Below are positions 3,001 through 23,472 of a stretch of 64,000 nt of DNA, in pieces. A program made the translations under genes and the position numbers. The notes under the pieces were generated by a model. The model made no database searches, was not told where the DNA came from, and was given only the letters and a program-made list of their open reading frames with translations. The stretch lies in assembly GCF_056746865.1 (NCBI RefSeq), contig NZ_CM163382.1; one strand, 5' to 3'. The stretch's first letter is position 1. Each line of letters starts with the position of its first letter.

Positions 3001-6000
3001 GGCGGCCGATGACATTATTAACGCTGCCGAAGCGGGCAATGCGCAAACCATCAGTGGGCAGGTGACGGGTGCCGCGGCGGGCGACACAGTTACCGTTACG
3101 CTGGGTGGCAACACCTACACCGCCACGGTGCAGGCTAATTTAAGCTGGAGCGTTAGCGTGCCGGCGGCGGATATTCAGGCCATCGGCAATGGTAATCTCA
3201 CAGTAAACGCCTCGGTCACTAATGGCGTGGGCAACACCGGCAGCGGCTCGCGCGATATCACGATCGATGCCAATCTGCCTGGCTTGCGGGTCGATACCGT
3301 GGCGGGCGATGATGTTATTAACAGCATTGAGCACAATCAGGCGCTGGTGATAACAGGTAGCAGCACCGGGTTAACGGCGGGAACGGCGTTAACGGTCGAG
3401 ATTAACAACGTTACTTATGGCGCGACGGTATTAGCCGACGGCACGTGGAGCCTCGGTATTCCGGCGGCAGACGTCAGCAACTGGCCTGCGGGTACGGTGG
3501 ATATTACGGTAAGCGGCACCAACAGCGCCGGAACAACCTCTACCATTACCCATCCGGTTACCGTCGATCTGGCGGCGGTCGCCATCACCATTAACACCCT
3601 TTCCGGCGATGATGTGATCAACGCCGTGGAGAAAGGCGAAACGCTGGTCGTAAGCGGCAGCACCAGCGGTGTGGAAGCTGGGCAGACGGTGACCGTCACC
3701 TTTGGCGGTAAAAATTACACCACCACTGTGGAAGCCAACGGCAGCTGGACGGTGAATGTGCCGCCTGCCGATCTCGCTGCGCTACCGGACGGCGCGGGCA
3801 ACGTGCAGGCGAGCGTCAGCAATATTAACGGCAACAGCGCCCAGGCCGATCGCGCGTATAGCGTCGATGCCACCGCGCCGCTTATTACTATCAACACCAT
3901 CGCCAGCGACGATACTCTTAACGTGAGCGAAGCGGGCGCGGGGATCACCATCAGCGGCACCACCACGGCGCAGGCCGGGCAGACGCTGACCGTCACGCTC
4001 AATAACAACACGTACCAGACCACCATTCTCGCGGATGGCACCTGGAGCGTGAACGTTCCGGCAACGGATTTAAGCGGATTAACCGCCAGCAGTTATACCG
4101 TGACTGCGACGGTGAGCGACAAAGCGAGCAACCCGGCAAGCGCCGATCATGCGCTGGCGGTGGACGTTACCGCTCCGGATCTCACCATTAACACCGTCGC
4201 GGGCGATGACATCATCAACGCTATCGAACACGGGCAGGCGCTGGTGGTGAGCGGCACCAGCACGGGCGCGGCGGCAGGCGATGTGGTGACCGTCTCGCTC
4301 AACGGCAAAAACTACACCACCACGCTGGATGCCTCTGGTAACTGGAGCGTCGGTATCCCGGCGGCAGATGTGACGGCGCTGGCAACCGGAAGCCAGACCA
4401 TTACTGCCAGCCTGAGCGATCGCGCGGGCAACAGCGACAGCGCTACCCATAATGTCACCGTTGATCTTAGCGGCCCGACGCTGACCATCAGTACCGTCTC
4501 CGGCGACGACATCATCAATAATGCGGAGAAAACTCAGGATCTGACCATCAGCGGCGGCTCCAGCGGTCTGGCGACCGGCACCACGGTCACCGTGATGTTG
4601 AACGGCCTGGCGTACAGCGCCACCACCGATAGTTCCGGCAACTGGAGCGTTACCGTGCCTGCTTCGGCGGTCGGTGCCCTGGGCGAGGCGGTCTATTCGA
4701 TTAGCGCCAGCGCCACCGACAGCGCGGGCAACAGCGGCAGTACCACCCATACGGTGAATGTCGAATCGCTCCTGCCTGGGGTGATCATTAATACCGTGGC
4801 GGGCGATGACATTATCAACGCCGCTGAAATCGTTGTGGCGCAGACCATCAGCGGTCAGGTCACGGGAACGGCGGTTGCCGGGAATACGGTGATTGTCACC
4901 ATTGGCGGCAATCAATATAACGCCACCGTGCAGTCAGATTTAAGCTGGAGCGTCAGCGTACCGGCGAACGTTTTGCAGGCGCTGGGTAACGGTGAACTGA
5001 CCATCAGCGCCTCGGTGACCAATTCCGCAAATAATACCAGCACCGCGACGCACGATATCGTGATAGATGCCAACCTGCCAGGTCTGCGCGTCGATACCGT
5101 GGCAGGCGATGATGTGATTAACAGCATCGAGCACACTCAGGCGTTGGTGATCACCGGTAGCAGTAGCGGACTGGCGGCGGGCGCGGCGTTGACGGTGGTT
5201 ATCAATAGCGTCACCTACGGCGCAACGGTACTCGCCGATGGCAGCTGGAGCGTCGGTGTTCCGGCGGCAGATGTCACAAACTGGCCTGCGGGAACGGTCA
5301 ATATTGCCGTTTCTGGCACCAATACCGCCGGAACCACAACCAGCATTAGCCATCCGGTCACGGTCGATCTCGCGGCCGTGGCGATTACCATTAACACCCT
5401 TTCCACTGACGATGTGATTAATGCCGCCGAAAAAGGCAGCGATTTGCAGCTCTCCGGCACCACCTCCGATGTGGAAGCGGGGCAAACCATCACCGTTATC
5501 TTCGGCGGCAAAAGCTACACCACCACGGTTGCCGCGGGCGGCACCTGGGGGCTGACAATCCCAGCAGCCGATCTCGCAACCTTGCCTGACGGCGCAGCAA
5601 ACGTCCAGGCCAGCGTCAGCAACGTCGCAGGTAACAGCGCCCAGGCAACGCATGCTTACAGCGTCGATGCCACCGCGCCTTCCGTTACCATCAACACCAT
5701 CGCCACGGACGATATTCTTAACGCCGACGAAGCGGGATCGGCGCTGACCATCAGCGGCACCAGCACGGCGGAAGCCGGGCAGACGGTGACCGTGACGCTA
5801 AACGGCGTCAATTACAGCGGCAACGTGCAGGCAGACGGGAGCTGGAGCGTCAGCGTCCCGACCGGCGATTTAGCTAACCTCACTGCCAGCCCCTATACGG
5901 TGAGCGCAGCGGTCAGCGACAAAGCCGGAAATCCGGCCTCGGCGACGCATAACCTGACGGTGGATCTTGTTGCGCCGGTCGTTACCATTAACACGGTAGC

Positions 6001-9000
6001 GGGCGATGACATCATTAACGCCACAGAACACGGACAGGCGCAGATTATCAGCGGCTCGGCAACGGGCGCGACGACCGGTAACACGGTGTCCGTGACGATT
6101 GGCACGACCACTTACACCACCGTGCTGGACGCCAACGGCAACTGGAGCATCGGCGTGCCTGCCAGCGTGATTTCCGCACTGGCGCAGGGGAATGTGACCA
6201 TTACCGCCACGGTCACCGACTCCGCAGGCAACAGCGGCACGGCCTCGCACACTGTCAGCGTGGCGCTCGGCGCGCCGATACTGAGTATTAACACCATCGC
6301 CGTTGATGACATCATTAATGCCACGGAGAAAGGCGCGGATCTGGCGATTTCCGGAAGCAGCAACCAGCCTGCGGGTACGCAGATAACCGTTACGCTCAAC
6401 GGGCAAAATTACACCACCACTGCCGATGCATCCGGTAACTGGAGCGTGACCGTTCCGGCGTCACGGGTGAGCACCCTCGGTGAAGCCACTTACACGGTGA
6501 CTGCCGCCGCCACTGACGCCGATGGCAACAGCGGTTCCGCCAGCCATAACGTGCAGGTTAATACCGCGCTGCCGGGCGTCACCATTAACGTTGTCGCGAG
6601 CGACGATATTATTAACGCTGCCGAAGCGGGCGCGGGCCAGAGCATCAGCGGGCAGGTGACGGGCGCGGCAGCGGGCGACACGGTAACCGTCACGCTCGGC
6701 GAGGCGACTTACACTGCCACGGTGCAGGCGAATTTAAGCTGGAGCGTCGATGTTCCGGCCTCCGCGCTACAGGCGTTGGGCAACGGTGAACTGACCATTT
6801 CGGCTTCGGTAACGAACAGCGTAGGCAATACCGGCAACGGCACGCGCGAAATCACCATCGACGCGAATCTCCCCGGTCTGCGGATTGACACCGTGGCGGG
6901 CGATGATGTGGTCAACATTATCGAGCACGGGCAGGCGCTGGTGATTACCGGCAGCAGCTCCGATCTGGCAGCGGGCAGCAACGTCACGCTGACCATTAAC
7001 GGGCAAACCTATGTTGCGGCGGTACTGGCGGATGGCTCATGGAGCGTCGGCGTTCCGGCGGTGGATGTCAGCGCCTGGCCTGCGGGGACGGTCACGATTA
7101 CAGCCAGCGGCAACACCACCGCCGGAAACCCGGTGAGCGTTACGCATCCGGTGACTGTCGATCTCACTGCGGTGGCGGTCAGCATCAACGCCATTACTGC
7201 CGATGACGTGATTAACGCTGCCGAAAAAGGCGCGGCGTTAACGCTCTCTGGCAGCACTTCTGGTGTCGAAGCCGGGCAAACGGTCACCGTCACCTTTGGC
7301 GGCAAAACCTACACTGCAAGCGTCGCGGCGAATGGTTCCTGGAGTACCACGGTTCCGGCGACAGATATGGCAGCCCTGCGTGATGGCGATGCCAGCGCGC
7401 AGGCCAACGTCAGCAATGTTAACGGCAACAGCGCCACCACTACCCACGCTTACAGCGTCGATGCTACCGCGCCAACGGTGACCATTAACACCATTGCGGG
7501 CGACGACATTCTTAACGCCGCCGAAGCCGGAGCGGCGCTGACCATCACTGGCAGCAGCACGGCGGAAGCGGGGCAGACGGTGACCGTCACCCTCAATGGT
7601 GCAAACTATACTGGCACCGTACAGACGGACGGCAGCTGGAGCATCAGCGTACCGCCAGCCGACTTAAGCGCCCTGACCGCCAGCAACTACACCGTTAGCG
7701 CGGCGGTGAGCGACAAAGTCGGAAACCCGGCCTCGGTTAATCACAACCTGACGGTGGATACGTCTGTTCCGGTCGTCACCATCAACACGGTGGCAGGCGA
7801 TGATGTGATCAACGCGACGGAACACGCCCAGGCGCAGATTATCAGCGGCTCCGCCACGGGTGCGGCAACCGGCAGCGCCGTGACGGTGACTATCGGCACA
7901 AACACCTTTACCACCGTACTGGATGCCAGCGGTAACTGGAGCGTCGGCGTTCCGGCAAGCGTCGTCTCGGCGCTGGCGAACGGCACGGTGACCATTAACG
8001 CCAGCGTCACCGATGCCGCCGGAAACAGCGGCAGCGCTACGCATCTGGTGACGGTCAATACTGGCCTTCCGTCAATTACCTTTAACGCCATCAGCGGCGA
8101 TAACGTCCTGAACGCCGATGAAAAAGGCCAGCCGTTGACCATTAGCGGTAGCAGTACGGGGTTGGCGACCGGCGCACAGGTTACCGTCACACTCAACGGT
8201 CATAACTACAGCGCTACCACCGACGCGGCGGGCAACTGGACGTTAACCGTGCCGGTGAGCGATCTGGCGGCTTTAGGCCAGGCCAACTATATCGTCAGCG
8301 CCAGCGCCACCAGTGCGGCAGGCAACATCGCCAGCAGCCAGGCGAATTTACTGGTCGATAGCGGCCTGCCGGGCGTCACCATCAACACCGTGGCGGGCGA
8401 TGATATTATCAACGCCGCCGAAGCCGGGGCCGATCAAACCATCAGCGGGGTGGTCACTCGTGCCGCCGCTGGCGATACGGTTACCGTCACGCTGGGCGGC
8501 AACACTTACACCACCACGGTACAGGGCAACTTAAGCTGGAGTATCAGCGTTCCGGCAGCCGATCTCCAGGCGTTGGGCAATGGCGATTTGACCATTAACG
8601 CTTCGGTCACCAACGCGAATGGCAATACGGGCAGCGGTACGCGGGATATCACCATTGACGCTAACCTGCCAGGGCTGCGCGTGGATACGGTAGCGGGCGA
8701 TGATATCGTCAACAGCATTGAACACGGGCAGGCGCTGGTGATCACTGGCGGCAGTAGCGGCCTGAATGCAGGCGTGCCATTGACGATCACGATTAACGGC
8801 ACGGCTTATTCCGCCACGGTACAGGCAGACGGGAGCTGGAGCGTCGGCATTCCGGCGACAAACGTCAGCGCATGGCCTGCGGGGGCGTTAACCGTTGACG
8901 TGGCAGGCCAGAGCAGCGCCGGAAATCCGGTCAGCGTCAGCCATCCGTTCACCGTCGATTTAACGGCGGTGGCAATCAGCATCAACACCGTTGCCAGCGA

Positions 9001-12000
9001 CGACGTAATTAACGCCGCCGAAAAAGGCACCGACCTGACCCTTTCTGGCAGCACCAGCGGAATTGAAAGCGGGCAAACCGTTACCGTCACTTTTGGCGGT
9101 AAAACCTACACTGCAAGCGTCGCCGCCAACGGTAGCTGGAGTGTGAACGTTCCAGCGGCAGATCTGGCAACTCTGCCAGACGGCGCGGCGAACGTGCAGG
9201 CCAGTGTCAGCAGCGCGAGCGGTAACAGTGCCTCGGCGACCCATGCGTACAGCGTTGACGCCAGCGCACCGACGCTCACCATTAACACCATTGCCAGCGA
9301 CGATATTCTTAACGCCACGGAGGCGGGAAGCCCGCTCACCATCAGCGGCACCAGCACCGCCGAAACCGGGCAGACGGTCACCGTAACCCTTAACGGCGCA
9401 ACCTACAGCGGTAATGTGCAGGCAGACGGTAGCTGGAGCGTCAGCGTTCCCCCTTCAGCCTTAGGCGCGCTGACCGCAAGCAATTACACCGTCAGCGCCA
9501 CGGTCAACGACAAAGCGGGCAACCCCGGCAGCACCAGCCATAATCTGGCGGTAGACACCACCGCGCCGGTTCTCACCATTAACACCGTGGCAGGCGATGA
9601 CATCATCAACGATGCTGAACACGCCCAGGCGCTGGTGATTTCCGGCACCAGCAGCGGCGGGGAAGCGGGCGATGTGGTGAGCGTTGTGCTCAACGGCAAA
9701 ACCTACACCTCCACCCTGGATGCCTCCGGCAACTGGAGCGTTGGCGTTCCGGCGGCGGATGTTACGGCGCTGGGTAGCGGCGCACAGACCATCACCGCCA
9801 GCGTCAGCGATCGGGCGGGTAACAGCGATGACGCCAGCCGCACCGTGACCGTCAGCCTCAGCGCGCCAGTGATTAGCATCAACACCATCGCGGGCGATGA
9901 TGTGATCAACGCGACGGAAAAAGGATCTGATCTGACGCTTTCCGGCACCAGCGATCAGCCTGCGGGTACGGCGATCACCGTTACGCTGAACGGACAAAAC
10001 TACAGCGCCACCACCGACGCCTCCGGCAACTGGAGCGTTACCGTGCCTGCCTCTGCTGTCAGTGCGCTGGGCGAAGCCACCTACAGCGTGACGGCGAGCG
10101 TCACCAATGCTCAGGGTAACAGCAGCACCGCCAGCCATAACGTGCAGGTCAATACCGCGCTGCCGGGCGTCACCATTAATCCGGTGGCGACGGACGATAT
10201 TATCAACGCCGCTGAAGCAGGCAGTGCGCAAACCATCAGCGGCCAGGTAACCGGTGCGGCGGCGGGCAGCACCGTCACCGTTGAACTGGGCGGCAAAACT
10301 TACACCGCCACGGTCCAGGCTGATTTAAGTTGGAGTGTGAGCGTACCTGCCGCCGACTGGCAGGCGCTGGGTAACGGTGAGTTAACGGTTAATGCCTCGG
10401 TGACCAACGCCGTTGGCAACACCGGTAGCGGCACGCGCGATATCACCATCGATGCCAGTCTGCCTGGCCTGCGGGTGGATACCGTCGCGGGTGATGATGT
10501 GGTCAATATCATCGAACACAGTCAGGCGCAGGTGATCACCGGTAGCAGCTCCGGCTTTGCGGTGGGCACGGCGCTGAACGTAGTGATAAATAATCAAACT
10601 TACGCCGCCACGGTGCTGGCGAACGGCAGCTGGAGCGTCGGCGTTCCTGCGACGGATGTCAGTAACTGGCCTGCGGGAACGCTGAATATTACCGTTAGCG
10701 GCGCGAACAGTGCCGGAACGCAAACCAGCATTACCCATCCGCTGACCGTTGATCTCACCACCGTCGCCGTCAGCATAAACAGCATCACCAGCGATGATGT
10801 GATTAACGCCGCCGAAAAAGGCGCGGCGCTAACGCTCTCCGGCAGCACGTCCGGCGTCGAAGCGGGGCAAACCGTTACCATTACTTTTGGCGGTAAAACC
10901 TACACCACCACGGTGGCGGCAAACGGTAGCTGGAGCACCACCGTTCCGGCGGCGGATATGGCGGCCCTGCGTGACGGCGATGCCAGCGCCCAGGTGCGGG
11001 TGACTAACGTCAACGGCAACAGCGCCACGGCAACGCATGAATACAGCGTCGATAGCGCCGCGCCAACGGTCACCATCAACACCATTGCCAGCGATAACAT
11101 CATCAATGCCAGCGAAGCGGCGGCGGGCGTAACGGTGTCCGGCACCAGCACGGCGCAAACCGGGCAGACGCTCACCGTCACGCTTAATGGCACTAACTAC
11201 CAGACCACGGTGCAGGCAGACGGCAGCTGGAGCTTAACGCTGCCCGCCAGCGACTTAACCGCACTTGCCAATAACGGCTACACCCTGACCGCCACGGTCA
11301 GCGATTTGGCGGGTAACCCTGGCAGCGCCAGCAAAGGTGTGACCGTCGATACCACCGCGCCCGTCATCAGCTTTAACACCGTGGCGGGCGACGATGTGAT
11401 TAACAGAGTTGAACACACTCAGGCGCAGATTATCAGCGGCACCGCCACGGGCGCGGTGGCGGGCGACCGTCTGGTGGTGACCATCGCCGGGCAGCAGTAT
11501 GTCACCAGCACCGATGCCAGCGGCAACTGGAGCGTCGGCGTGCCTGCCAGCGTGATTTCCGGCCTTGCAGATGGCACAGTGACTATCAGCGCCACTATCA
11601 CCGATAGCGCAGGCAACAGCAGCACCCAGACGCACAACGTACAGGTAAACACGGCGGCAGTGTCGCTCTCGGTCAGCACCATCAGCGGCGATAATATTAT
11701 TAACGCCGCCGAAGCGGGCAGTGCGCTGACCCTGAGCGGCACCGGAACGAACTTTGCCGCAGGTACAGTGGTGACCGTGTTGCTTAACGGCAAAGGCTAC
11801 AGCGCTACCATTCAGAACAACGGGAGCTGGAGTGTGAACGTGCCGGCGGCAGACGTCGCGGCACTGGCGGATGGCACCAGCTACACGGTTAGCGCCTCCG
11901 CCCAGGATAGCGCCGGAAACAGCGCCACGGCCTCGCGCAGTGTGGCGGTGGATCTCACCGCGCCGGTTATCAGCATAAACACGGTTTCAACGGACGACCG

Positions 12001-15000
12001 ACTCAACGCCGCCGAACAGCAGCAGCCGTTAACCCTTAACGGCTCGACCAGCGCGGAAGTAGGGCAGACGGTAACCGTCACCTTTGGCGGCAAAACTTAT
12101 ACCGCCACGGTGGCCGCCAATGGCACCTGGGCGCTGAACGTGCCTGCGGCAGATCTGGCCGCGCTCGGGCAGGGCGCACAGACCATTACCGCCAGCGTGA
12201 ACGATCGCGCCGGTAACCCCGGTCAAACCACGCACGCCCTGACCGTCGATACCGTTGCGCCAACGGTCACCATCGCCACGGTGGCGGGTGACGATATTAT
12301 CAACAACGCCGAACAGCTCGCTGGGCAAACCATCAGCGGCACCACCACCGCTGAAGTGGGCCAGACGGTGACCGTCACCTTTAACGGTCAGAGCTGGACT
12401 GCAACGGTCGGCAGCGGCGGAAGCTGGTCGGTGTTTATTCCGGCGCAGCAGTTTGCCGGATTAAGCGACGGCAGCTACACCATTAGCGCGACGGTTAGCG
12501 ATCAGGCCGGAAACCCTGGTAGCGCCAGCCGTGGCGTGACATTGAACGGCGACGTCCCCTCCGTCACCATCAACACCTTTGCGGGCGATGATGTGGTGAA
12601 TGCGGCGGAGCACGGCTCGTCGCTGGTGATCAGCGGCACCACCACCGCCCCAGTCGGGCAGACGCTGACCCTGACCTTAAACGGCAAAACCTACACTACC
12701 ACGGTACAGACCGGCGGTAGCTGGAGCTACACCCTCGGCAGCGCCGATGTCACCGCGCTGGCGGACGGCAATGCCTACGTGATTAACGCCTCGGTGAGCA
12801 ACGCCATTGGCAACACCGGCAGCAGCAATCACACCATTACCGTCGACCTCAGCGCCCCGGCGATGGGCATTAATATCGATTCCCTGCAAGCCGACACTGG
12901 CCTTAGCTCCAGCGACTTTATCACCAGCGTCAGCCCGGTGGTGGTCAACGGCTCGCTCACCGCCGCGCTTGCCAGTAACGAGACGGCGCAAATCAGTATC
13001 GACGGCGGCGTAACCTGGACCACGCTTACCGTTACCGGCACGACCTGGCGCTATAACGACAGCCGCACGCTGACCGATGGTAACTATCTCTATCAGGTAC
13101 GGGTGATTGACGCAGCGGGCAACGTCGGTGCCACTGACAGCCAGAATGTGGTGATCGACACCATCGCGCCAGATCCAGCAGTAAAAACCATCGCCATCAG
13201 CGCGATCACCACCGATACTGGATTGATTACTAACGATTTTGTCACCAGCGACACGACGCTTGCGGTGAGCGGCACGCTGGGGGCGGCGCTTTCTGCCGGT
13301 GAGTTCGCGCAAATCAGCATTGATGGCGGCACCACCTGGCAGAATCTTTCGGTAAGCGGTTTGACCTGGACATATCTTGACGGGCGTACGCTGACTGACG
13401 GCAACTACAACTATCAGGTACGGGTGATCGACACCGCCGGAAATATCGGCGCGACTGCCAGCCAGATAGTCACCGTGGATACCACCGCGCCGCTGGCGAG
13501 CAAAACCATCGCCATTGCGGGCATTAGCGATGACACCGGGTTAAGCAGCAGCGATTTTGTTACTCGCGACACTACGCTTACTGTGCGCGGCACGCTCGGC
13601 GCGGCGCTGGCGGCAGACGAACGGGCGCAAATCAGCCTCGACGGCGGTGTCACCTGGACCACGTTAACCGTTATCGGCACCAGCTGGAGCTATGCCGATG
13701 GTCGCACACTGACCGACGGCACCTGGAACTACACGGTGCGGGTGGTGGATCTGGCGGGGAACGTTGGGCAGACCGCAACGCAAAACGTGGTGGTCGACAC
13801 CACCAGCCCGGAAGCGGCGAAAAGTATCACCATTACCGGTATCAGCGATGACACCGGAGCCAGCAGCAGCGATTTTATTACCAGCGACACCTCGCTTACC
13901 GTGCGCGGCGTATTGGGGGCGGCGCTCGGCGCTAACGAATTCGCGCAAATCAGTACCGACAACGGCGCAACCTGGGTGAACGTGACCGTCGCCGCAGACG
14001 GCCTTAACTGGAGTTACGTTGACGGACGCACGCTCACCAACGGCACCACCACCTGGCAGGTGCGGGTGGTGGATCTGGCGGGCAACGTTGGCGCAACCGG
14101 CAGCCAGTCGGCGCAGATTGACACCGTGAACCCGGCGCAGGTACTCACCATCGCCAGCATCAGCACCGACACGGGGAGTTCGGCAACTGACTTTATCACC
14201 AGCGATACCTCGCTCACGCTGACCGGTTCGCTGGGGGCGGGGCTTGCCAGCGGCGAAGTGGCGCAGATTAGCCTCGACGGCGGCGCGACCTGGATCACGC
14301 TCACCACCAACGGCACGCAGTGGACCTACACTGACAGCCGCACGCTGACCGACGGCAGCTACGTTTACCAGGTGCGGGTGCTGGATCTGGCGGGGAATAC
14401 TGGCCCGGTGGTGTCGAAAACGGTGGTGGTCGATACGATTAACCCCACCGCGACGCCGACCATTGTGTCGTACACTGATGACGTCGGGCAGCGGCAGGGG
14501 ACATTAAGCAGTTCGCAGGCCACCGACGACACTACGCCGTTGCTGAACGGCGTGCTCTCCGGCCCGCTTGCCAGCGGTGAAGTGGTTTACCTCTACCGTA
14601 ACGGCCTGCTGTTAGGCGCGGTAACGATGGTAGGCGCACTGAACTGGACCTACAGCGACAGCGGGCTGGTGAGCGGTGCCTACACCTACAGCGCGCGAGT
14701 GGTGGATCTGGCGGGGAATATCACCTCCTCCAGTGATTTTGTCCTGATGGTCGATACCTCTATTCCGACCACGCTGGCGCAAATTACCAGCCAGACCACG
14801 CGCGATACTACGCCGATTATCAGCGGGGTGATCACCGCCGCGCTTGCCAGCGGGCAGTATGTTGAAGTGGTGATCAACGGCAAAACCTACACCTCTGAAC
14901 CGGGCGGTGCGGTGGTGGTCGATCCGGCGCACAACACCTGGTATGTACAGTTGCCGGATACCGACGCGCTGGCGGCTTCTGCGACCGCCTATAACGTCAC

Positions 15001-17248
15001 CGCGCAGGTAAAAAGCTCGGCGGGCAACGGCAATAACGCCAATATTAGCAACGGCACGGTGACGGTTAACGCGGCGATTGATTACACACCGACCTGGACC
15101 ACCGCCAGCAAAACCACCGCCTGGGGGCTGACCTACGGCCTCGACACGCACGGAATGTGGACGGTGCTGGCAAACCAGCAGGTAATGCAATCGACTGACC
15201 CACTCACCTGGTCGAAGACCGCGCTGACGCTGTATCAGAGCGGCAACAACTACGCCACCAGCTCCATCGCCGATTACGACCGTAACGGCACGGGCGATCT
15301 GTTTATCACCCGTGATGACTACGGTACAGGCTATATCAACGGCTTTACCAATAACGGCGACGGCACCTTTTCCAGCGCTATTCAGGTCACCGTCGGCACC
15401 CTGACGTGGTACGGCTCGATTGTGGCATTTGATAAAGAGGGCGACGGCTATCTCGACTTCTGGATTGGCGACGCGGGCGGGCCGGACTCCAACACCTTCC
15501 TGTGGAACAACGCAGGTACGCTGGTAGGTAACTCCACTACGTCGAACAGCGGCGGTAGCGCCACGGTGGGCGGGGCGGTGACGGGGTATCTTTCGCTCAA
15601 CGAAGGTTCTGGCGTCGATCTGAACAATGACGGCAGGATCGACCTGGTTCAGCACACCTACAACCTGAACAACTATTACACGCTATCTTCGCTCATCAAC
15701 CAGGGGAATGGCACGTTTGTCTGGGGGCAGAACACCACCAATACCTTCCTGAGCGGGGCGGGTAGTGGCGCTATGAGCAGCAGCGTTTCTATGACCTGGG
15801 CCGATTTCGATGGCGACGGCGATATGGACCTCTTCCTGCCTGCCAGCCAGGGAAGAGCTAACTACGGCTCGCTGTTATTCAACACCAACGGCGTGCTGGG
15901 CAGTCCGGTGGCGGTGGGCGCAACGGCAACCACCTACGCCAGCCAGTTTAGCGTGGCGGTGGACTGGAACCACGACGGCCTGATGGATATCGCCCGTATC
16001 GCCCAGACCGGACAATCGTATCTTTACACCAACGTTGGTGGTGCCAGCAACTGGACACAATCGGCCCTCGGCGGCAGCCAGAGCGGTACCACCAGCGGCG
16101 TGGCGGCAATGGACTACGACTGGGACGGCGCGGTGGATGTACTGGTGACCAAACAGTCGGGCAGCGTGTTCCTGATCCGCAACACCAACACGGTGAGCTA
16201 CGGCACTTCGCTACACCTGCGCATCACCGATCCCAACGGCATTAACGTCTATTACGGTAATACCGTAAAACTGTATAACTCGGCGGGGGTGCTGGTCGCC
16301 ACGCAAATCATTAACCCGCAGTCGGGGATGGGGGTTAACGACACCTCGGCGCTGGTCAACTTCTACGGGCTGAATGCCGGAGAAACCTACAACGCGGTGC
16401 TGATCAAATCCACTGGCACCACCGCCAGCAATATCGACCAGACGGTCAACACCAGCTGGGGCGGCTTACAGGCCACCGATGCCACTCACGCTTACGACCT
16501 CAGCGCCGAAGCAGGCACCGCGAGCAACAATGGCAAGTTCGTCGGCACGGGCTATAACGACACCTTCTTTGCCACCGCAGGTACTGACACTTACGACGGC
16601 TCCGGCGGCTGGGTGTACAGCTCCGGCACCGGAACGTGGCTGGCAAACGGCGGCATGGACGTGGTTGATTTCCGCCTCTCGACGGTGGGCGTGACCGCGA
16701 ACTTAAGCAGCACCGCCGCACAGGCCACCGGCTTTAACACCTCGACATTTACCAATATCGAAGGCATTTCCGGCTCGAATTTTAACGACACTCTGACCGG
16801 CAGCAGCGGCGATAACCAACTGGAAGGGCGCGGCGGCAACGACACCCTTAACATCGGAAACGGCGGTCACGATACCTTGCTCTATAAATTGCTCAACGCC
16901 AGTGACGCTACCGGCGGCAACGGCTCAGACGTGGTGAATGGCTTTACGGTAGGGACATGGGAAGGCACCGCCGACACCGATCGCATTGATATCCGCGAGT
17001 TGTTACAGGGCAGCGGCTACACCGGCAACGGCAAAGCCAGCTACGTCAACGGCGTGGCAACGCTGGATGCGCAGGCTGGAAACATCGGTGATTTTGTCAA
17101 AGTCACCCAGAGCGGCAGCGACACCATCGTGCAGATCGACCGCGACGGCACGGGCGGCACTTTTGCGGCAACTAACGTGGTCACGCTGACGGGCGTGCAT
17201 ACCGACCTCGCCACTTTGCTGGCGAATCATCAGTTGATGGTGGTGTAG
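1..17248 (+). CDS. Giant T1SS-secreted repeat adhesin (SiiE/LapA/Bap-like), 5' partial; 5743 codons in window
   Basis: Reading frame is open from window start (frame 2) to the stop at 17248. About 12.8 kb of ~100-aa Ig-like repeats, then a second repeat class, FG-GAP/VCBS-like motifs, RTX-like Gly/Asp-rich repeats and an acidic C-terminus, with a T1SS ABC transporter gene 4 bp downstream. Confidence 0.9.
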   Translation, partial: IATDDVINAAEKGADLTLSGTTTNVEPGQTVTVTFGGKNYTASVASDGSWTATVPAADLASLPEGSASAQASVSNINGNSASAVHNYSIDSSAPTIIINTVASDNIVNASEADAGVTVSGSTTAEAGQIVTVTLNSPTVQTYQATVQADGSWSINIPAADLEALTDGSHTLTATVNDKAGNPASTTHNLAVDLTVPVLTINTIAGDDIINAAEHGQALVISGSSTGGEAGDVVTVTLNSKTYTTTLDASGNWSVGVPAADVTALGSGPQTVTATVTDAAGNSDNETHTVTVNLAAPTIGINTIATDDVINATEKGADLQISGTSNQPAGTTITLTLNGQNYTATTDAAGNWSTTVPASAVGALGEASYTVTANVTDSAGNSNSASHNVQVNTALPGVTLNPVASDDIINAAESGVAQTISGQVTGAAAGDTVTVTLGGKTYTATVQGNLSWSVDVPAADIQAIGNGDLTVNASVTNGVGNTGSGSRDITIDANLPGLRVDTVAGDDVVNSIEHSQALVITGSSSGLAAGAALTVVINTVTYAATVLADGTWSLGVPAADVGNWPAGTVNITVSGATSAGNPVTITHPVTVDLAAVAISINTVSGDDVINAAEKGADLTLSGSTSGVELGQTVTVTFGGKTYTATVAGDGSWTTSVPAADLAALRDGDATVQASVSNINGNTASATHAYSVDATAPTFAINTIATDDILNAAEAGNPLTISGSSTAEAGQTVTVTLNGVTYTGTVQADGSWSVSVPTADLSNLTASQYTVSASVSDKAGNPATATHGLAVDLTVPVLTINTVSGDDIINAAEHGQALVISGSSTGGEAGDVITVTLNSKTYTTTLDASGNWSVGVPLSDVTALGSGPQTITATITDAAGNSDDASRTVTVNLTAPTIGINTIADDDVINATEKGADLQITGTSNQPAGTTITVTLNGQNYTAITDASGNWSATVPASAVSALGEANYTVTANVTDSAGNSNSASHNVLVNSALPAVTINAVAADDIINAAEAGNAQTISGQVTGAAAGDTVTVTLGGNTYTATVQANLSWSVSVPAADIQAIGNGNLTVNASVTNGVGNTGSGSRDITIDANLPGLRVDTVAGDDVINSIEHNQALVITGSSTGLTAGTALTVEINNVTYGATVLADGTWSLGIPAADVSNWPAGTVDITVSGTNSAGTTSTITHPVTVDLAAVAITINTLSGDDVINAVEKGETLVVSGSTSGVEAGQTVTVTFGGKNYTTTVEANGSWTVNVPPADLAALPDGAGNVQASVSNINGNSAQADRAYSVDATAPLITINTIASDDTLNVSEAGAGITISGTTTAQAGQTLTVTLNNNTYQTTILADGTWSVNVPATDLSGLTASSYTVTATVSDKASNPASADHALAVDVTAPDLTINTVAGDDIINAIEHGQALVVSGTSTGAAAGDVVTVSLNGKNYTTTLDASGNWSVGIPAADVTALATGSQTITASLSDRAGNSDSATHNVTVDLSGPTLTISTVSGDDIINNAEKTQDLTISGGSSGLATGTTVTVMLNGLAYSATTDSSGNWSVTVPASAVGALGEAVYSISASATDSAGNSGSTTHTVNVESLLPGVIINTVAGDDIINAAEIVVAQTISGQVTGTAVAGNTVIVTIGGNQYNATVQSDLSWSVSVPANVLQALGNGELTISASVTNSANNTSTATHDIVIDANLPGLRVDTVAGDDVINSIEHTQALVITGSSSGLAAGAALTVVINSVTYGATVLADGSWSVGVPAADVTNWPAGTVNIAVSGTNTAGTTTSISHPVTVDLAAVAITINTLSTDDVINAAEKGSDLQLSGTTSDVEAGQTITVIFGGKSYTTTVAAGGTWGLTIPAADLATLPDGAANVQASVSNVAGNSAQATHAYSVDATAPSVTINTIATDDILNADEAGSALTISGTSTAEAGQTVTVTLNGVNYSGNVQADGSWSVSVPTGDLANLTASPYTVSAAVSDKAGNPASATHNLTVDLVAPVVTINTVAGDDIINATEHGQAQIISGSATGATTGNTVSVTIGTTTYTTVLDANGNWSIGVPASVISALAQGNVTITATVTDSAGNSGTASHTVSVALGAPILSINTIAVDDIINATEKGADLAISGSSNQPAGTQITVTLNGQNYTTTADASGNWSVTVPASRVSTLGEATYTVTAAATDADGNSGSASHNVQVNTALPGVTINVVASDDIINAAEAGAGQSISGQVTGAAAGDTVTVTLGEATYTATVQANLSWSVDVPASALQALGNGELTISASVTNSVGNTGNGTREITIDANLPGLRIDTVAGDDVVNIIEHGQALVITGSSSDLAAGSNVTLTINGQTYVAAVLADGSWSVGVPAVDVSAWPAGTVTITASGNTTAGNPVSVTHPVTVDLTAVAVSINAITADDVINAAEKGAALTLSGSTSGVEAGQTVTVTFGGKTYTASVAANGSWSTTVPATDMAALRDGDASAQANVSNVNGNSATTTHAYSVDATAPTVTINTIAGDDILNAAEAGAALTITGSSTAEAGQTVTVTLNGANYTGTVQTDGSWSISVPPADLSALTASNYTVSAAVSDKVGNPASVNHNLTVDTSVPVVTINTVAGDDVINATEHAQAQIISGSATGAATGSAVTVTIGTNTFTTVLDASGNWSVGVPASVVSALANGTVTINASVTDAAGNSGSATHLVTVNTGLPSITFNAISGDNVLNADEKGQPLTISGSSTGLATGAQVTVTLNGHNYSATTDAAGNWTLTVPVSDLAALGQANYIVSASATSAAGNIASSQANLLVDSGLPGVTINTVAGDDIINAAEAGADQTISGVVTRAAAGDTVTVTLGGNTYTTTVQGNLSWSISVPAADLQALGNGDLTINASVTNANGNTGSGTRDITIDANLPGLRVDTVAGDDIVNSIEHGQALVITGGSSGLNAGVPLTITINGTAYSATVQADGSWSVGIPATNVSAWPAGALTVDVAGQSSAGNPVSVSHPFTVDLTAVAISINTVASDDVINAAEKGTDLTLSGSTSGIESGQTVTVTFGGKTYTASVAANGSWSVNVPAADLATLPDGAANVQASVSSASGNSASATHAYSVDASAPTLTINTIASDDILNATEAGSPLTISGTSTAETGQTVTVTLNGATYSGNVQADGSWSVSVPPSALGALTASNYTVSATVNDKAGNPGSTSHNLAVDTTAPVLTINTVAGDDIINDAEHAQALVISGTSSGGEAGDVVSVVLNGKTYTSTLDASGNWSVGVPAADVTALGSGAQTITASVSDRAGNSDDASRTVTVSLSAPVISINTIAGDDVINATEKGSDLTLSGTSDQPAGTAITVTLNGQNYSATTDASGNWSVTVPASAVSALGEATYSVTASVTNAQGNSSTASHNVQVNTALPGVTINPVATDDIINAAEAGSAQTISGQVTGAAAGSTVTVELGGKTYTATVQADLSWSVSVPAADWQALGNGELTVNASVTNAVGNTGSGTRDITIDASLPGLRVDTVAGDDVVNIIEHSQAQVITGSSSGFAVGTALNVVINNQTYAATVLANGSWSVGVPATDVSNWPAGTLNITVSGANSAGTQTSITHPLTVDLTTVAVSINSITSDDVINAAEKGAALTLSGSTSGVEAGQTVTITFGGKTYTTTVAANGSWSTTVPAADMAALRDGDASAQVRVTNVNGNSATATHEYSVDSAAPTVTINTIASDNIINASEAAAGVTVSGTSTAQTGQTLTVTLNGTNYQTTVQADGSWSLTLPASDLTALANNGYTLTATVSDLAGNPGSASKGVTVDTTAPVISFNTVAGDDVINRVEHTQAQIISGTATGAVAGDRLVVTIAGQQYVTSTDASGNWSVGVPASVISGLADGTVTISATITDSAGNSSTQTHNVQVNTAAVSLSVSTISGDNIINAAEAGSALTLSGTGTNFAAGTVVTVLLNGKGYSATIQNNGSWSVNVPAADVAALADGTSYTVSASAQDSAGNSATASRSVAVDLTAPVISINTVSTDDRLNAAEQQQPLTLNGSTSAEVGQTVTVTFGGKTYTATVAANGTWALNVPAADLAALGQGAQTITASVNDRAGNPGQTTHALTVDTVAPTVTIATVAGDDIINNAEQLAGQTISGTTTAEVGQTVTVTFNGQSWTATVGSGGSWSVFIPAQQFAGLSDGSYTISATVSDQAGNPGSASRGVTLNGDVPSVTINTFAGDDVVNAAEHGSSLVISGTTTAPVGQTLTLTLNGKTYTTTVQTGGSWSYTLGSADVTALADGNAYVINASVSNAIGNTGSSNHTITVDLSAPAMGINIDSLQADTGLSSSDFITSVSPVVVNGSLTAALASNETAQISIDGGVTWTTLTVTGTTWRYNDSRTLTDGNYLYQVRVIDAAGNVGATDSQNVVIDTIAPDPAVKTIAISAITTDTGLITNDFVTSDTTLAVSGTLGAALSAGEFAQISIDGGTTWQNLSVSGLTWTYLDGRTLTDGNYNYQVRVIDTAGNIGATASQIVTVDTTAPLASKTIAIAGISDDTGLSSSDFVTRDTTLTVRGTLGAALAADERAQISLDGGVTWTTLTVIGTSWSYADGRTLTDGTWNYTVRVVDLAGNVGQTATQNVVVDTTSPEAAKSITITGISDDTGASSSDFITSDTSLTVRGVLGAALGANEFAQISTDNGATWVNVTVAADGLNWSYVDGRTLTNGTTTWQVRVVDLAGNVGATGSQSAQIDTVNPAQVLTIASISTDTGSSATDFITSDTSLTLTGSLGAGLASGEVAQISLDGGATWITLTTNGTQWTYTDSRTLTDGSYVYQVRVLDLAGNTGPVVSKTVVVDTINPTATPTIVSYTDDVGQRQGTLSSSQATDDTTPLLNGVLSGPLASGEVVYLYRNGLLLGAVTMVGALNWTYSDSGLVSGAYTYSARVVDLAGNITSSSDFVLMVDTSIPTTLAQITSQTTRDTTPIISGVITAALASGQYVEVVINGKTYTSEPGGAVVVDPAHNTWYVQLPDTDALAASATAYNVTAQVKSSAGNGNNANISNGTVTVNAAIDYTPTWTTASKTTAWGLTYGLDTHGMWTVLANQQVMQSTDPLTWSKTALTLYQSGNNYATSSIADYDRNGTGDLFITRDDYGTGYINGFTNNGDGTFSSAIQVTVGTLTWYGSIVAFDKEGDGYLDFWIGDAGGPDSNTFLWNNAGTLVGNSTTSNSGGSATVGGAVTGYLSLNEGSGVDLNNDGRIDLVQHTYNLNNYYTLSSLINQGNGTFVWGQNTTNTFLSGAGSGAMSSSVSMTWADFDGDGDMDLFLPASQGRANYGSLLFNTNGVLGSPVAVGATATTYASQFSVAVDWNHDGLMDIARIAQTGQSYLYTNVGGASNWTQSALGGSQSGTTSGVAAMDYDWDGAVDVLVTKQSGSVFLIRNTNTVSYGTSLHLRITDPNGINVYYGNTVKLYNSAGVLVATQIINPQSGMGVNDTSALVNFYGLNAGETYNAVLIKSTGTTASNIDQTVNTSWGGLQATDATHAYDLSAEAGTASNNGKFVGTGYNDTFFATAGTDTYDGSGGWVYSSGTGTWLANGGMDVVDFRLSTVGVTANLSSTAAQATGFNTSTFTNIEGISGSNFNDTLTGSSGDNQLEGRGGNDTLNIGNGGHDTLLYKLLNASDATGGNGSDVVNGFTVGTWEGTADTDRIDIRELLQGSGYTGNGKASYVNGVATLDAQAGNIGDFVKVTQSGSDTIVQIDRDGTGGTFAATNVVTLTGVHTDLATLLANHQLMVV
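2..12850 (+). repeat. Tandem array of ~300-bp (~100-aa) Ig-like domain repeats organised as a ~1.8-kb higher-order unit of six domain subtypes, at least 7 copies
   Basis: Recurring motifs (INAAEKGADLTLSG, TVTFGGKTYTA, INAAEHGQALVISG, INATEKGADLQISG, AQTISGQVTGAAAGDTVTVTLGG, VNSIEHSQALVITG) return in the same order. Antisense artefact ORFs recur at 1621, 3415, 5215, 7009, 8806 and 10600, giving a period of about 1797 bp. Confidence 0.85.
12851..14450 (+). repeat. Second class of ~105-aa repeats in the adhesin (about six copies)
   Basis: Repeated pattern DTGLSSSDFITSDTSLTVRGTLGAALAA.E.AQIS.DGG.TW..LTV.G..W.Y.DGRTLTDG.Y.YQVRV.D.AGN; two more degenerate copies follow to about 15050. Confidence 0.6.
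15270..16150 (+). repeat. FG-GAP/VCBS-like calcium-binding repeats (probable beta-propeller) in the adhesin
   Basis: Spaced Dx[DN]xDGxxD motifs: DYDRNGTGDLF, FDKEGDGYLDF, DLNNDGRIDLV, DFDGDGDMDLF, DWNHDGLMDIA, DYDWDGAVDVLV. Confidence 0.55.
16540..16890 (+). repeat. RTX-like glycine/aspartate-rich nonapeptide repeats preceding the C-terminal secretion signal
   Basis: GTGYNDTFFATAGTDTYDGSGG and GSNFNDTLTGSSGDNQLEGRGGNDTLNIGNGGHDTLLY resemble GGxGxDxUx repeats; the protein ends ...TLLANHQLMVV. Confidence 0.6.
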
Positions 17249-17251
17249 AGA

Positions 17252-19414
17252 ATGAAAAAAAATGCCCAGTCCGTGGAAGCCTGGCTGGAGGCGATGATCG
17301 CCGTGGCGCGTTATTACCGCCTTGATTTTTCTCAGGAGAATGTGCGCGCGACCGTCAACTGGGAGCGCGACAGTAAGCGGGAGGAGTTACTCACCGACAT
17401 GGCGCGGCAGTTGGGGATGGGGCTTCGGCTGGTGGAGTTCTCCACCGACTCGCTCAACCCGTGGCGGCTGCCGTTGATCGCCGTTTTTGATAATCAACAA
17501 ATTGGCGTGATCACCCGCCGTGACAATCACGACAATATCAGCATTCAGTTTAGCGGTGACGAAGGGCTGGAAACTACGCTTAACGTCGCGGATGTTGAGG
17601 ATAAAATCGTTGAACTGGCGCTACTGCGCCCGCTCAGCGCCATCCCTGACGCGCGGGTAGATGACTATATTCGCCCGTATCAGGCGAACTGGTTCTGGAG
17701 CCTTTCGCTAAAAGACTGGCGGCGCTACGGCGATATTATGCTGGCCTCGCTGGTGGCGAACGTGCTGGCGCTGGCGGCGATGATTTTCTCGATGCAGGTT
17801 TACGACCGGGTGGTTCCGGCGCAATCGTACCCGACGCTATGGGTGCTGTTCGCCGGGGTGATGATGGCGATCCTGTTTGAGTTCTGTATGCGCATGGTGC
17901 GCACACATCTTTCGGATGTGATCGGCAAGCGGGCGGATCTGCGCATTTCGGATCGCGTTTTTGGTCACGCATTACGGCTGAAAAATAACGTGCGATCGAA
18001 ATCCACCGGATCGTTTATCTCGCAGATCCGCGAGCTGGAATCGGTGCGGGAGCTGATTACTTCCACCACCATCGGCGCGGTGGCGGATCTGCCGTTCTTC
18101 CTGCTGTTTGTCTTTATTTTATGGATGATCGGCGGCTGGCTGGTGCTGGTGGTTTTGCTGGCGCTGCCGTTATTGGTGATCCCCGGCCTGCTGGTGCAAC
18201 GCCCGCTGGCGCGGCTGGCGAACGAAGGGATGCGCGAGTCGGCGGTGCGTAACGCTACGCTGGTGGAAGCCGTGCAGTCGATTGAAGATATTAAGCTGCT
18301 GCGCGCCGAACAGCGTTTTCAGAATCAGTGGAACCACACCAACGACGTGGCCTCGTCCATCAGCATGAAGCAACGTTTTCTCACCGGGCTACTGCTCACC
18401 TGGACCCAGGAAGTGCAGTCCATCGTTTACGTCGTGGTGCTGTTGGTGGGCTGCTTTATGGTAATGAACGGTGACATGACCACCGGCGCGCTGGTCGGGA
18501 CGACGATCCTGGCTTCGCGCACCATCGCGCCGCTGTCGCAGATATCCGGCGTGCTCTCGCGCTGGCAGCAGGCGAAAGTGGCGCGCAACGGACTTGATGA
18601 ACTGATGAAGCGCCCGGTGGATCAGCCGGAACACGGCAAACTGGTGCATAAAGCGGTGCTACACGGCAATTATCAGTTCAGCAACGCTATCTTTTATTAC
18701 GATGAAGAAGAGAAAATTGCCGATGTGGCGATTGGCAAACTCAACATTCAGGCCGGAGAGAAAATCGCCATTCTTGGGCGCAACGGCGCGGGTAAATCAA
18801 CGCTACTGCAAATGCTCGCCGGAATGCGTATCGCCCAGCAGGGGCAGGTGCTGCTGGATAACATCAGCATCGGTCAGCTTGATCCGGCGGATCTGCGCCG
18901 CGACATGGGGCTGCTGAGCCAGACCGGGAGACTCTTTTTCGGTTCGCTGCGGGAAAACCTGACGATGGGGATGCCGGAAGCCAGCGATGAAGATATCGAA
19001 CGCGCGTTAACCCTCAGCGGGGCGCTGCCGTTTGTGCAGAAGCAGAAAAACGGCCTCAACTACATGATTCAGGAAGGGGGATTTGGCCTCTCTGGTGGTC
19101 AGCGGCAAACGCTGCTGCTGGCGCGGCTGCTCATCTCTCAACCCAATATCGTGCTGCTCGATGAACCCAGCGCCTCGCTGGACGAAATGGCGGAAGCGCA
19201 TTTAATCGAACAACTGAAACAGTGGATTGGCCATCGCACGCTGATTATCGCCACTCACCGCACGGCGATGCTGCAACTGGTGGACCGCATTATCGTGATG
19301 GATCAGGGGCGGATTGTGATGGATGGCGCGAAAGAGGCCATTTTGCGTGAACAGAGCGAACCCACGGCGCGACGGGTGGTGTTGCAGGAGAAGAATAAGG
19401 GGTCTGCCGCATGA
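17252..19414 (+). CDS. T1SS ABC transporter (ATPase/permease, HlyB/LapB-like) with N-terminal C39-like domain
   Basis: 720 aa. Walker A GRNGAGKST, ABC signature LSGGQRQ, Walker B IVLLDEP and H-loop ATHR are present, with hydrophobic segments in the middle. Starts 4 bp after the adhesin stop and overlaps the next gene by 4 bp. Confidence 0.9.
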   Translation: MKKNAQSVEAWLEAMIAVARYYRLDFSQENVRATVNWERDSKREELLTDMARQLGMGLRLVEFSTDSLNPWRLPLIAVFDNQQIGVITRRDNHDNISIQFSGDEGLETTLNVADVEDKIVELALLRPLSAIPDARVDDYIRPYQANWFWSLSLKDWRRYGDIMLASLVANVLALAAMIFSMQVYDRVVPAQSYPTLWVLFAGVMMAILFEFCMRMVRTHLSDVIGKRADLRISDRVFGHALRLKNNVRSKSTGSFISQIRELESVRELITSTTIGAVADLPFFLLFVFILWMIGGWLVLVVLLALPLLVIPGLLVQRPLARLANEGMRESAVRNATLVEAVQSIEDIKLLRAEQRFQNQWNHTNDVASSISMKQRFLTGLLLTWTQEVQSIVYVVVLLVGCFMVMNGDMTTGALVGTTILASRTIAPLSQISGVLSRWQQAKVARNGLDELMKRPVDQPEHGKLVHKAVLHGNYQFSNAIFYYDEEEKIADVAIGKLNIQAGEKIAILGRNGAGKSTLLQMLAGMRIAQQGQVLLDNISIGQLDPADLRRDMGLLSQTGRLFFGSLRENLTMGMPEASDEDIERALTLSGALPFVQKQKNGLNYMIQEGGFGLSGGQRQTLLLARLLISQPNIVLLDEPSASLDEMAEAHLIEQLKQWIGHRTLIIATHRTAMLQLVDRIIVMDQGRIVMDGAKEAILREQSEPTARRVVLQEKNKGSAA

Positions 19415-20586
19415 ACGGACAACTGCAATACAACCGTGGCCTGACTGAACCCCGCTTGCCGCGTTCGGCGCTGGCGGTACGCGTTACCGCTGTGATGCTG
19501 CTCTGTTTTCTCGGCTGGGCGTGGTACTTCCAGCTTGATGAAGTCACCACCGGCAGCGGCACGGTAGAACCCTCCGGGCGCGAACAGGTGGTGCAGTCGC
19601 TGGAAGGCGGAATTCTGTATCATCTCGACGTCAAGGTTGGCGATATTGTTGAACAGGGCCAGCCACTGGCGCAGCTTAACCGCACCAAAACGGAATCCGA
19701 CGTCCAGGAAGCAATGTCGCGGCTGTACGCGGCGCTGGCAACCTCGGCGCGGCTGCGGGCGGAAGTGAGTAATAAACCGCTGGTCTTCCCTGACGAACTG
19801 AATAAATTCCCCGAACTTATCGAGTCGGAAACGGCGTTGTACAACACTCGCCGCGATGGGCTGAACAAAGCCACCACCGGGCTGACGCAGGGGATTAGCC
19901 TGGTCAACCGCGAACTGGCGATGACCCAGCCGCTGGTAAAACAGGGGGCGGCGAGCAGCGTTGAAGTGCTGCGCCTGCAACGCCAGGCCAATGAACTGGA
20001 AAACAAACTCAGCGACGTGCGCACGCAATACTACGTTCAGGCGCGCGAAGAGTTAGCAAAAGCCAATGCGGAAGTGGAAACCCAGCGTTCGGTGATCCGT
20101 GGACGGGAAGACTCCCTCACCCGGCTCAACTTTACCGCGCCGGTACGTGGCATTGTTCAGGACATTGACGTCACCACGGTTGGCGGCGTTATTGCCCCCG
20201 GTGGTAAACTGATGACCATCGTGCCGCTGGATGAGCAACTGCTGATCGAGGCAAAAATCTCCCCGCGCGATGTGGCGTTTATCCATCCGGGGCAAAAATC
20301 GCTGGTGAAAATAACCGCCTACGATTACTCCATCTACGGCGGCCTGCCGGGAGAAGTGGCGGTGATATCACCAGACACCGTGCAGGATGAAGTACGGCGC
20401 GATGTTTATTACTATCGGGTGTACATTCGCACTTTCAGCAACCATCTGGAAAATAAAAGCAAACAGCAGTTTCCGATATTCCCCGGTATGGTGGCGACGG
20501 TCGATATCCGCACCGGCAAAAAAAGCGTGCTGGATTATCTGTTGAAACCCTTTAACAAAGCACAGGAGGCGTTGCGCGAACGATGA
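19411..20586 (+). CDS. T1SS periplasmic adaptor (HlyD-family membrane fusion protein)
   Basis: 391 aa. N-terminal transmembrane helix ([20 protein letters not shown]), long coiled-coil-prone central region, C-terminal beta domain; start overlaps the ABC transporter stop. Confidence 0.85.
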
Positions 20587-20990
20587 ACATTAGCGATGTA
20601 GCAAAAATTACCGGCCTGACCAGCAAAGCCATTCGCTTCTATGAAGAGAAGGGGCTGGTGACGCCGCCGATGCGCAGCGAAAATGGTTATCGAACCTACA
20701 CGCAGCAGCATCTCAACGAACTGACCTTACTGCGCCAGGCGCGCCAGGTGGGCTTTAACCTGGAAGAGAGCGGCGAACTGGTGAATCTGTTTAACGATCC
20801 GCAGCGTCACAGTGCCGACGTCAAACGTCGCACCCTGGAGAAAGTGGCGGAGATCGAGCGACATATCGAAGAACTGCAATCCATGCGCAACCAGCTGTTG
20901 GCGCTGGCGAATGCCTGCCCTGGCGATGACAGCGCCGACTGCCCGATTATCGAAAATCTCTCCGGCTGCTGTCATCATCGGGCGGGGTGA
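20583..20990 (+). CDS. cueR: Copper-responsive MerR-family regulator CueR
   Basis: 135 aa, [25 protein letters not shown]...[24 protein letters not shown], recognised as E. coli CueR with its C-terminal Cys metal-binding motif. Confidence 0.95.
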
Positions 20991-23454: not shown

Positions 23455-23472
23455 GCATTTTTTCTCTTTCAA

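Follow-up and report, generated by a model that had tools for sequence, protein, structure and literature searches.

What stands at the far end of the giant adhesin SiiEA of Escherichia coli, and is it the part that binds? We addressed this question using a stretch of 64,000 nucleotides (nt) from contig NZ_CM163382.1 (assembly GCF_056746865.1), hereafter the window, in which positions 12851-17248 encode the C-terminal module of the protein. We consider it about 75% probable that this region is the distal cassette of a BapA-type RTX adhesin exported by the adjacent type I secretion system, and that a globular head resembling CRTAC1 is its likeliest ligand binder. The gene, siiEA, is part of O-island 28, which was recently tied to early adherence and colonisation by enterohaemorrhagic E. 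coli (EHEC) O157:H7 in a study that discussed only its immunoglobulin (Ig)-like and RTX domains (PMC12758282).

The open reading frame (ORF) enters the window at its 5′ end, the start of the gene lying outside, and terminates with the stop codon at 17246-17248. The 4398 bases of the module match the chromosome of E. coli 118UI, and many other isolates, at 100% identity. Strain 118UI carries an intact copy of the gene (20778 nt, 6925 amino acids (aa), WP_000052484.1), annotated as 'siiEA: BapA-related adhesin SiiEA'; the protein in the window corresponds to its C-terminal 5748 residues. Hereafter, residue i begins at window nt 2+3(i-1), and an offset of 1177 is added to obtain the position in WP_000052484.1. 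The N-terminal 229 aa score 507.8 bits with NF047714 (adhesin_SiiEA, cut-off 425), which makes the protein a member of the SiiEA family, and a BapA_N prefix-like domain is found at the N-terminus (E 1.3e-18).

Propeller, sandwich and RTX tail

A reading made from the sequence only had proposed about six FG-GAP/VCBS calcium-binding motifs in the module, and this number proved accurate. FG-GAP_3 (PF13517) matched three times (E 1.9e-9, 9.4e-8 and 1.9e-7) and FG-GAP (PF01839) with E 0.0094, and exactly six D.[DNE].[DN]G..D motifs were found, at residues 5091, 5144, 5206, 5268, 5321 and 5371. The pattern occurs nowhere else in the 5748 residues, and the shuffled propeller sequence contains it 0.0075 times on average. 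Four of the six agree strictly with the Dx[DN]xDG calcium-blade motif (Rigden et al. 2011, PMC3123361), while in a fifth, position 3 is E, and in the sixth, position 5 is N. Among 24 aligned full-length homologues (31-64% identity), all of which are matched by FG-GAP_3, positions 1 and 9 do not vary in any of the six motifs, and in five of the motifs positions 5 and 6 are either invariant or conserved to at least 90%. Judging from these residues, the six sites are probably occupied by calcium.

The AlphaFold2 model built from the alignment of the 24 homologues had a mean predicted local distance difference test score (pLDDT) of 89.9 and a predicted template modelling score (pTM) of 0.92. It contains 28 strands in seven groups of four, that is, a seven-bladed propeller of the FG-GAP/VCBS kind, followed by a seven-strand beta-sandwich. 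The calcium motifs are located between the first two strands of blades 2-7, and blade 1 carries none. The strands of the sandwich (model residues 382-456) were predicted with pLDDT above 90, and no Pfam family matched this part even at E<=10, either in the query or in any of the 24 homologues. The sandwich is the best conserved part of the cassette, with a mean column identity of 65% among homologues against 43% for the whole propeller-plus-sandwich alignment, and its protein sequence is 100% identical among the E. coli alleles compared. The domain may merit a new family definition of its own. An invariant G..N...GNTV motif and a conserved F/YGL were also noted within it (16202-16459).

When sequences were compared with the PDB, the propeller gave no match and only the RTX part was matched. 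Fold searches with Foldseek agreed with the model. The best relative described here was murine CRTAC1 (9etn), with E 2.8e-15 and a query-normalised template modelling score (TMq) of 0.70, and the two share the overall propeller-plus-sandwich fold. Because 407 residues were aligned, which is more than the ~350 residues of the propeller, the match implies that the modelled sandwich is covered by CRTAC1 as well. The SiiEA head differs from CRTAC1 in having no EGF domain and in being embedded in a giant bacterial adhesin. Integrin alpha propellers likewise have seven FG-GAP-family blades with calcium hairpins between strands 1 and 2, but matched more weakly than CRTAC1 (alphaIIb E 4e-8; alphaIIb and alpha4 ~1e-7); in comparison with them, the head has six calcium blades, where they have three or four, and it lacks both a beta-subunit partner and an I-domain.

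RTX-like repeats and a secretion signal had also been read from the sequence, and both held up. HemolysinCabind matched the tail with E 1.4e-4, and phmmer aligned it with the RTX blocks of CyaA (7usl, E 7.8e-5) in a typical register ('...NIEG.SGS...D.L.G....N.L.G..GND.L.G..G.D.L'). The model of the tail, built from 25 tails, is a beta-roll with pLDDT 85.8 and pTM 0.84, in which only the first 20 residues, a linker, are uncertain. TIGR03661 scored 34.9 bits against a curated cut-off of 17.6, and more than 30 homologues share the conserved ending ...GVxTDLATLLANHQLxVx. The description 'acidic C-terminus' suits the protein as a whole (pI about 4, no cysteine), but is weakly apt for the end itself, since the last 30 residues, ending LATLLANHQLMVV, are nearly uncharged. 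With a nonapeptide beta-roll near the C-terminus, a C-terminal secretion domain, and ABC (ATP-binding cassette), HlyD-family and TolC-like genes adjacent to siiEA, the protein shows each of the defining features of a type I-secreted RTX adhesin for which it was tested. All structural claims of the sequence-only reading withstood the check that it had set for itself: the FG-GAP and RTX HMM hits are significant, and the predicted structures contain a propeller and a beta-roll.

Ig-like repeats upstream of the head

The change of repeat class proposed at nt 12851 (residue 4284) was confirmed at the protein level. A hidden Markov model (HMM) built from the last three upstream repeats scored 61-158 bits with each of the 43 repeats of the extender; at and beyond residue 4289 its scores were no more than -1.4 to 19 bits. 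The first five repeats of the second class share 56-66% identity with each other and 28.7% on average with the upstream class, in which the mean identity is 48.5%. Six repeats of the second class were matched by Big_13 near full length (E 1.6e-13 to 4.4e-8), the last of them being the first of two divergent domains (E 4.4e-8), which are 28-39% identical to repeats 1-5. The second divergent domain, the seventh in all, is more Ca_tandemer-like and holds the best Ca_tandemer stretch of the module.

The repeats had been attributed to a different family, and this is correct only in part. NCBIfam sets the two classes apart, as Ca_tandemer scores about 100 bits with each upstream repeat (NF033510, 300 bits for the last three) and 82.8 bits with the whole 1465-aa C-terminal module. 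Pfam, on the other hand, labels the upstream repeats as Big_13 too, as partial matches. Because Pfam assigns both classes to Big_13, the second class is, by its sequence, a different subfamily of bacterial Ig-like domains and not a different Pfam family. The nearest structures also differ: SiiE BIg50-52 (2yn3) is the sole clear relative of the second class in the PDB (E 5.9e-8), and the extender matched the MpAFP RII tetra-tandemer (4p99, E 4.5e-48) and 2yn3 (E 4e-15) in phmmer searches, its relatives also including the RTX adhesin 5irb and Lap.

In the DNA, the second class has a period of 312-324 nt with copies 60-80% identical. Tandem Repeats Finder, whose longest period is 500 nt, gave no array at a score of at least 200 with copies this divergent, and the repeats were delimited at the protein level. 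The copy number of this class varies (region 13172-13900 of the window): EDL933 and ETEC6334 each lack, in frame, one Big_13 repeat of ~106 aa, and so have four close copies compared with five in the window allele. The extender is built as a six-domain super-repeat. Its repeats share 70% protein identity at a distance of six repeats, 69% at twelve and 44-47% at all other lags, with a peak of nucleotide identity at a lag of 1794 nt.

Table 1. Features of siiEA and of the transport genes downstream of it, in window coordinates
Feature	Residues	Position (nt)	Strand	Evidence
Extender, 43 tandem Ca_tandemer Ig-like repeats of 99-100 aa (part of siiEA)		2..12850	+	NF033510, custom HMM
Five Big_13 Ig-like repeats of 104-108 aa	4284-4815	12851..14446	+	PF19077, E 1.6e-13 to 1.9e-8
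Two divergent Ig-like domains	4816-4921 and 4922-5025	14447..15076	+	Big_13, Ca_tandemer
Seven-bladed FG-GAP/VCBS beta-propeller	5026-5400	15077..16201	+	FG-GAP_3, motifs, model
Post-propeller beta-sandwich, ~85 aa	5401-5486	16202..16459	+	Strands in model
RTX calcium-binding beta-roll	5487-5642	16460..16927	+	HemolysinCabind, phmmer, model
Type I secretion C-terminal target domain (VCA0849 class) and stop codon		16928..17248	+	TIGR03661, E 2.7e-8
LssB-type type I secretion ABC permease/ATPase		17252..19414	+	TIGR03375, 836.8 bits (cut-off 693)
HlyD-family periplasmic adaptor		19411..20586	+	TIGR01843, 327.7 bits

Distribution and possible role of the head

When 1.84 billion cluster representatives were searched, 10208 proved related at E<=0.001, and 119 reached E<=1e-30. 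More than 30 representative proteins, 740-4866 aa long, end in the propeller, the sandwich and a tail of 255-278 aa together. The cassette is thus found in many giant proteins of Enterobacteriaceae, Acinetobacter, Bartonella and other bacteria, and the named sources include Pluralibacter, Enterobacter hormaechei, Huaxiibacter, Serratia, Acinetobacter baumannii, A. bereziniae, A. larvae, Bartonella apis, Diaphorobacter, Limnobaculum, Pseudomonas zeae and Desulfococcaceae. Since these homologues already carry labels such as 'VCBS repeat-containing', 'FG-GAP-like repeat-containing' and 'type I secretion C-terminal target domain-containing', the architecture is common and automatically annotated. 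The propeller is not always terminal: in homologue P0004 it occupies residues 442-903 of 4108, seven stretches being matched in that protein, in P0009 it is followed by a tail of 1127 aa, and P0010 likewise belongs to the homologues with a propeller far from the C-terminus or in several stretches. Within the species, the region was found in 958 of 5426 complete E. coli genomes at 90-100% nucleotide identity. The identical allele occurs in urinary, avian and other isolates, in contrast to the reported absence of O-island 28 from the genomes of extraintestinal pathogenic and enteroaggregative E. coli (EAEC) (PMC12758282); the siiEA locus had been noted earlier in an EAEC-related strain (PMC3256949).

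Going by what has been established for type I substrates and by the RTX-adhesin model (PMC12153261, PMC6272769), the cassette would work as follows. The ABC transporter would recognise the uncleaved C-terminal target domain, so that the chain leaves the cell with its C-terminus first. The RTX beta-roll would then fold in extracellular calcium and block back-sliding, and the sandwich and the propeller with its six calcium sites would fold into the CRTAC1-like globular head. The seven SiiE-like Ig domains, and behind them the Ca_tandemer rod with 43 repeats in the window, would keep the head away from the cell, where it would act as the most likely specific ligand-binding element. By analogy with such substrates, export in this direction and retention at the surface would be expected, and the suggestion that the tip is secreted first and displayed farthest would follow from them; the head would stand at the far end only on condition that the N-terminal BapA_N region keeps the protein in the envelope.

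Three considerations make the head the best candidate for a specific binding module: no other part near the distal end is both globular and non-repetitive, the head shows high conservation, and the structures closest to it are propellers that bind ligands outside the cell. According to Guo et al. 2019, as cited in PMC12153261, RTX adhesins usually have their ligand-binding domains at the distal C-terminus. MpIBP of Marinomonas primoryensis, LapA, Aeromonas Lap and FrhA have an ice-, sugar- or peptide-binding domain there. SiiEA differs from these in its distal FG-GAP propeller and sandwich and in its BapA prefix-like N-terminus. The only propeller in an RTX adhesin that a literature search brought up is that of Pseudoalteromonas BapP, which is unrelated, N-terminal and five-bladed. 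The earlier idea that the tip is likely a ligand-binding or calcium-dependent folding module is plausible.

The gene siiEA was named after SiiE of Salmonella pathogenicity island 4 (SPI-4). Both proteins are giant type I secretion adhesins of Ig-like domains. The review of SiiE (PMC6272769) lists 53 BIg domains, an insertion of 60 aa and a signal at the C-terminus, and makes no mention of RTX; SiiE has neither RTX repeats nor a propeller and SiiEA has both, as the sequence-only reading had stated of the tip. In addition, SPI-4 encodes SiiA and SiiB, whereas no siiA/siiB-like genes are annotated in the siiEA locus. Despite its name, SiiEA is not SiiE-like in architecture, being neither all-BIg nor RTX-free.

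Ligand binding by the propeller is our inference, and several observations weigh against a ligand-binding CRTAC1-like head. The likeness to CRTAC1 is structural only, with 15% identity. The sequence pattern of the sandwich had led us to guess UnbV_ASPIC (PF07593), but this family gave no match at E<=10 in the query or the 24 homologues, and hhalign of the sandwich profile against the ASPIC-bearing P0207 aligned three columns with a probability of 0.2%. Because both of these tests were negative, it is structure that carries the link to CRTAC1, and because the fold is alike while the sequence test failed, the modelled head is CRTAC1-like and not a member of the CRTAC1/ASPIC family. As to adherence, constructs with only two Ig-like domains restored it in part (PMC12758282), which points to the Ig repeats and not to the propeller, and binding by SiiE has been proposed to be spread over its BIg domains (PMC6272769).

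The alleles of E. coli add two further points of this kind. When four other alleles, including EDL933 and ETEC6334, were compared with the window allele, protein identity was 94-100% in every domain. Diversifying selection on the tip was rejected, as the ratio of nonsynonymous to synonymous substitution rates (dN/dS) was 0-0.17 at dS 0.08-0.30 in every domain, the two higher ratios resting on near-zero dS; the adjacent ABC gene was similar, at 0.02. This result indicates that the cassette is under strong purifying selection among E. coli alleles, which in itself counts in favour of the main reading. Nevertheless, siiEA is a pseudogene in RefSeq in all four of the other alleles, EDL933 among them, and an intact, full-length rod with its tip is therefore not always present.

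Two other explanations of the head deserve weight, both of them unlikely in our estimation. In the first, the head mediates contacts between bacteria or with the matrix in biofilms, as in Salmonella BapA and the Bap-type proteins of Acinetobacter, and does not bind a host receptor. This would suit the BapA prefix-like domain at the N-terminus, a tip that is conserved and not diversifying, and the presence of the cassette in environmental or insect-associated bacteria without a common mammalian host (Diaphorobacter, Bartonella apis, Acinetobacter larvae, Limnobaculum, Desulfococcaceae), but against it stand the reduced adherence to Caco-2 cells and reduced colonisation of mice after deletion of O-island 28 or its genes (PMC12758282), which also favour the main reading. 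In that study extracellular calcium enhanced both adherence and colonisation, as determined for the whole island.

The second explanation, to which we give equally low odds, is that the propeller has no ligand and is a calcium-driven folding cap, which acts with the RTX roll as a ratchet on the outgoing chain and steadies the end of the rod, adhesion being distributed over the Ig repeats in the way suggested for SiiE. The six conserved calcium motifs next to an RTX roll agree with it, as do the partial complementation by two Ig-like domains mentioned above and the rise of SiiE binding with the number of BIg domains (PMC6272769). In many substrates, however, RTX rolls by themselves are enough for export; a strongly conserved two-domain head of 460 aa would be costly as a mere cap, and the nearest structural relatives include the ligand-binding propellers CRTAC1, integrin alpha and the BP39L/PLL lectins. 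An enzymatic role of the propeller, such as that of a polysaccharide lyase or dehydratase with mucus or matrix glycans as substrate, is very improbable, because its scores are no better than with dozens of non-enzymatic propellers and no catalytic family matched in Pfam or NCBIfam.

Returning to the head as the binding module, we tentatively put forward a broader proposal, on which we would not wager at even odds: the cassette may be a widespread, uncharacterised 'adhesive head' of BapA-type giant adhesins, related to CRTAC1 in structure and perhaps in evolution, which needs calcium to bind a conserved ligand, for instance a glycan or matrix component, and determines the specificity of EHEC adherence mediated by O-island 28. 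The named gene, the automatic domain assignments and the general role in adherence are already known, and the architecture fits the RTX-adhesin paradigm. What is added here is the reading of the head as CRTAC1-like, which is a modest addition, together with the unclassified conserved sandwich, the wide distribution of the cassette, and purifying selection alongside frequent annotation as a pseudogene. The propeller-sandwich of ~460 aa offers a concrete fragment for receptor hunting, blocking antibodies and vaccine work. The RefSeq pseudogene annotation in EDL933 and the three other alleles fetched calls for caution.

Genomic setting

The gene order in 118UI is TolC-family gene, siiEA, type I secretion permease/ATPase, HlyD-family adaptor and cueR, and the TolC-family gene 5′ of siiEA scores 416 bits with TIGR01844. 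G+C is 58-62% in siiEA and the transport genes and ~50% in the flanking core genes (ybbP, fetAB, allS and others), so that the region fits an acquired island. The start of cueR (20583-20990) overlaps the stop of the HlyD-family gene by four bases, and the island thus directly adjoins the gene of the copper regulator; read-through transcription into cueR is possible.

Within positions 1-20000 of the window, siiEA is marked by a strongly positive AT skew (0.14-0.18), G+C of 60-62% and zero cysteine codons. Long minus-strand ORFs inside it (e.g. 14612-15655, 347 aa) look like artefacts of composition, and we treated them as by-products of the 60% G+C. Farther downstream, a 600-aa ORF on the minus strand (21670-23472) lies in a stretch of low G+C (0.48) with a strongly negative AT skew. 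Its matches are weak and of the coiled-coil type (Rad50/SMC, E about 1e-8), and it is annotated in 118UI only in part, as 'YadA-like family protein'; possibly it is what is left of a trimeric autotransporter stalk, or a variant one.

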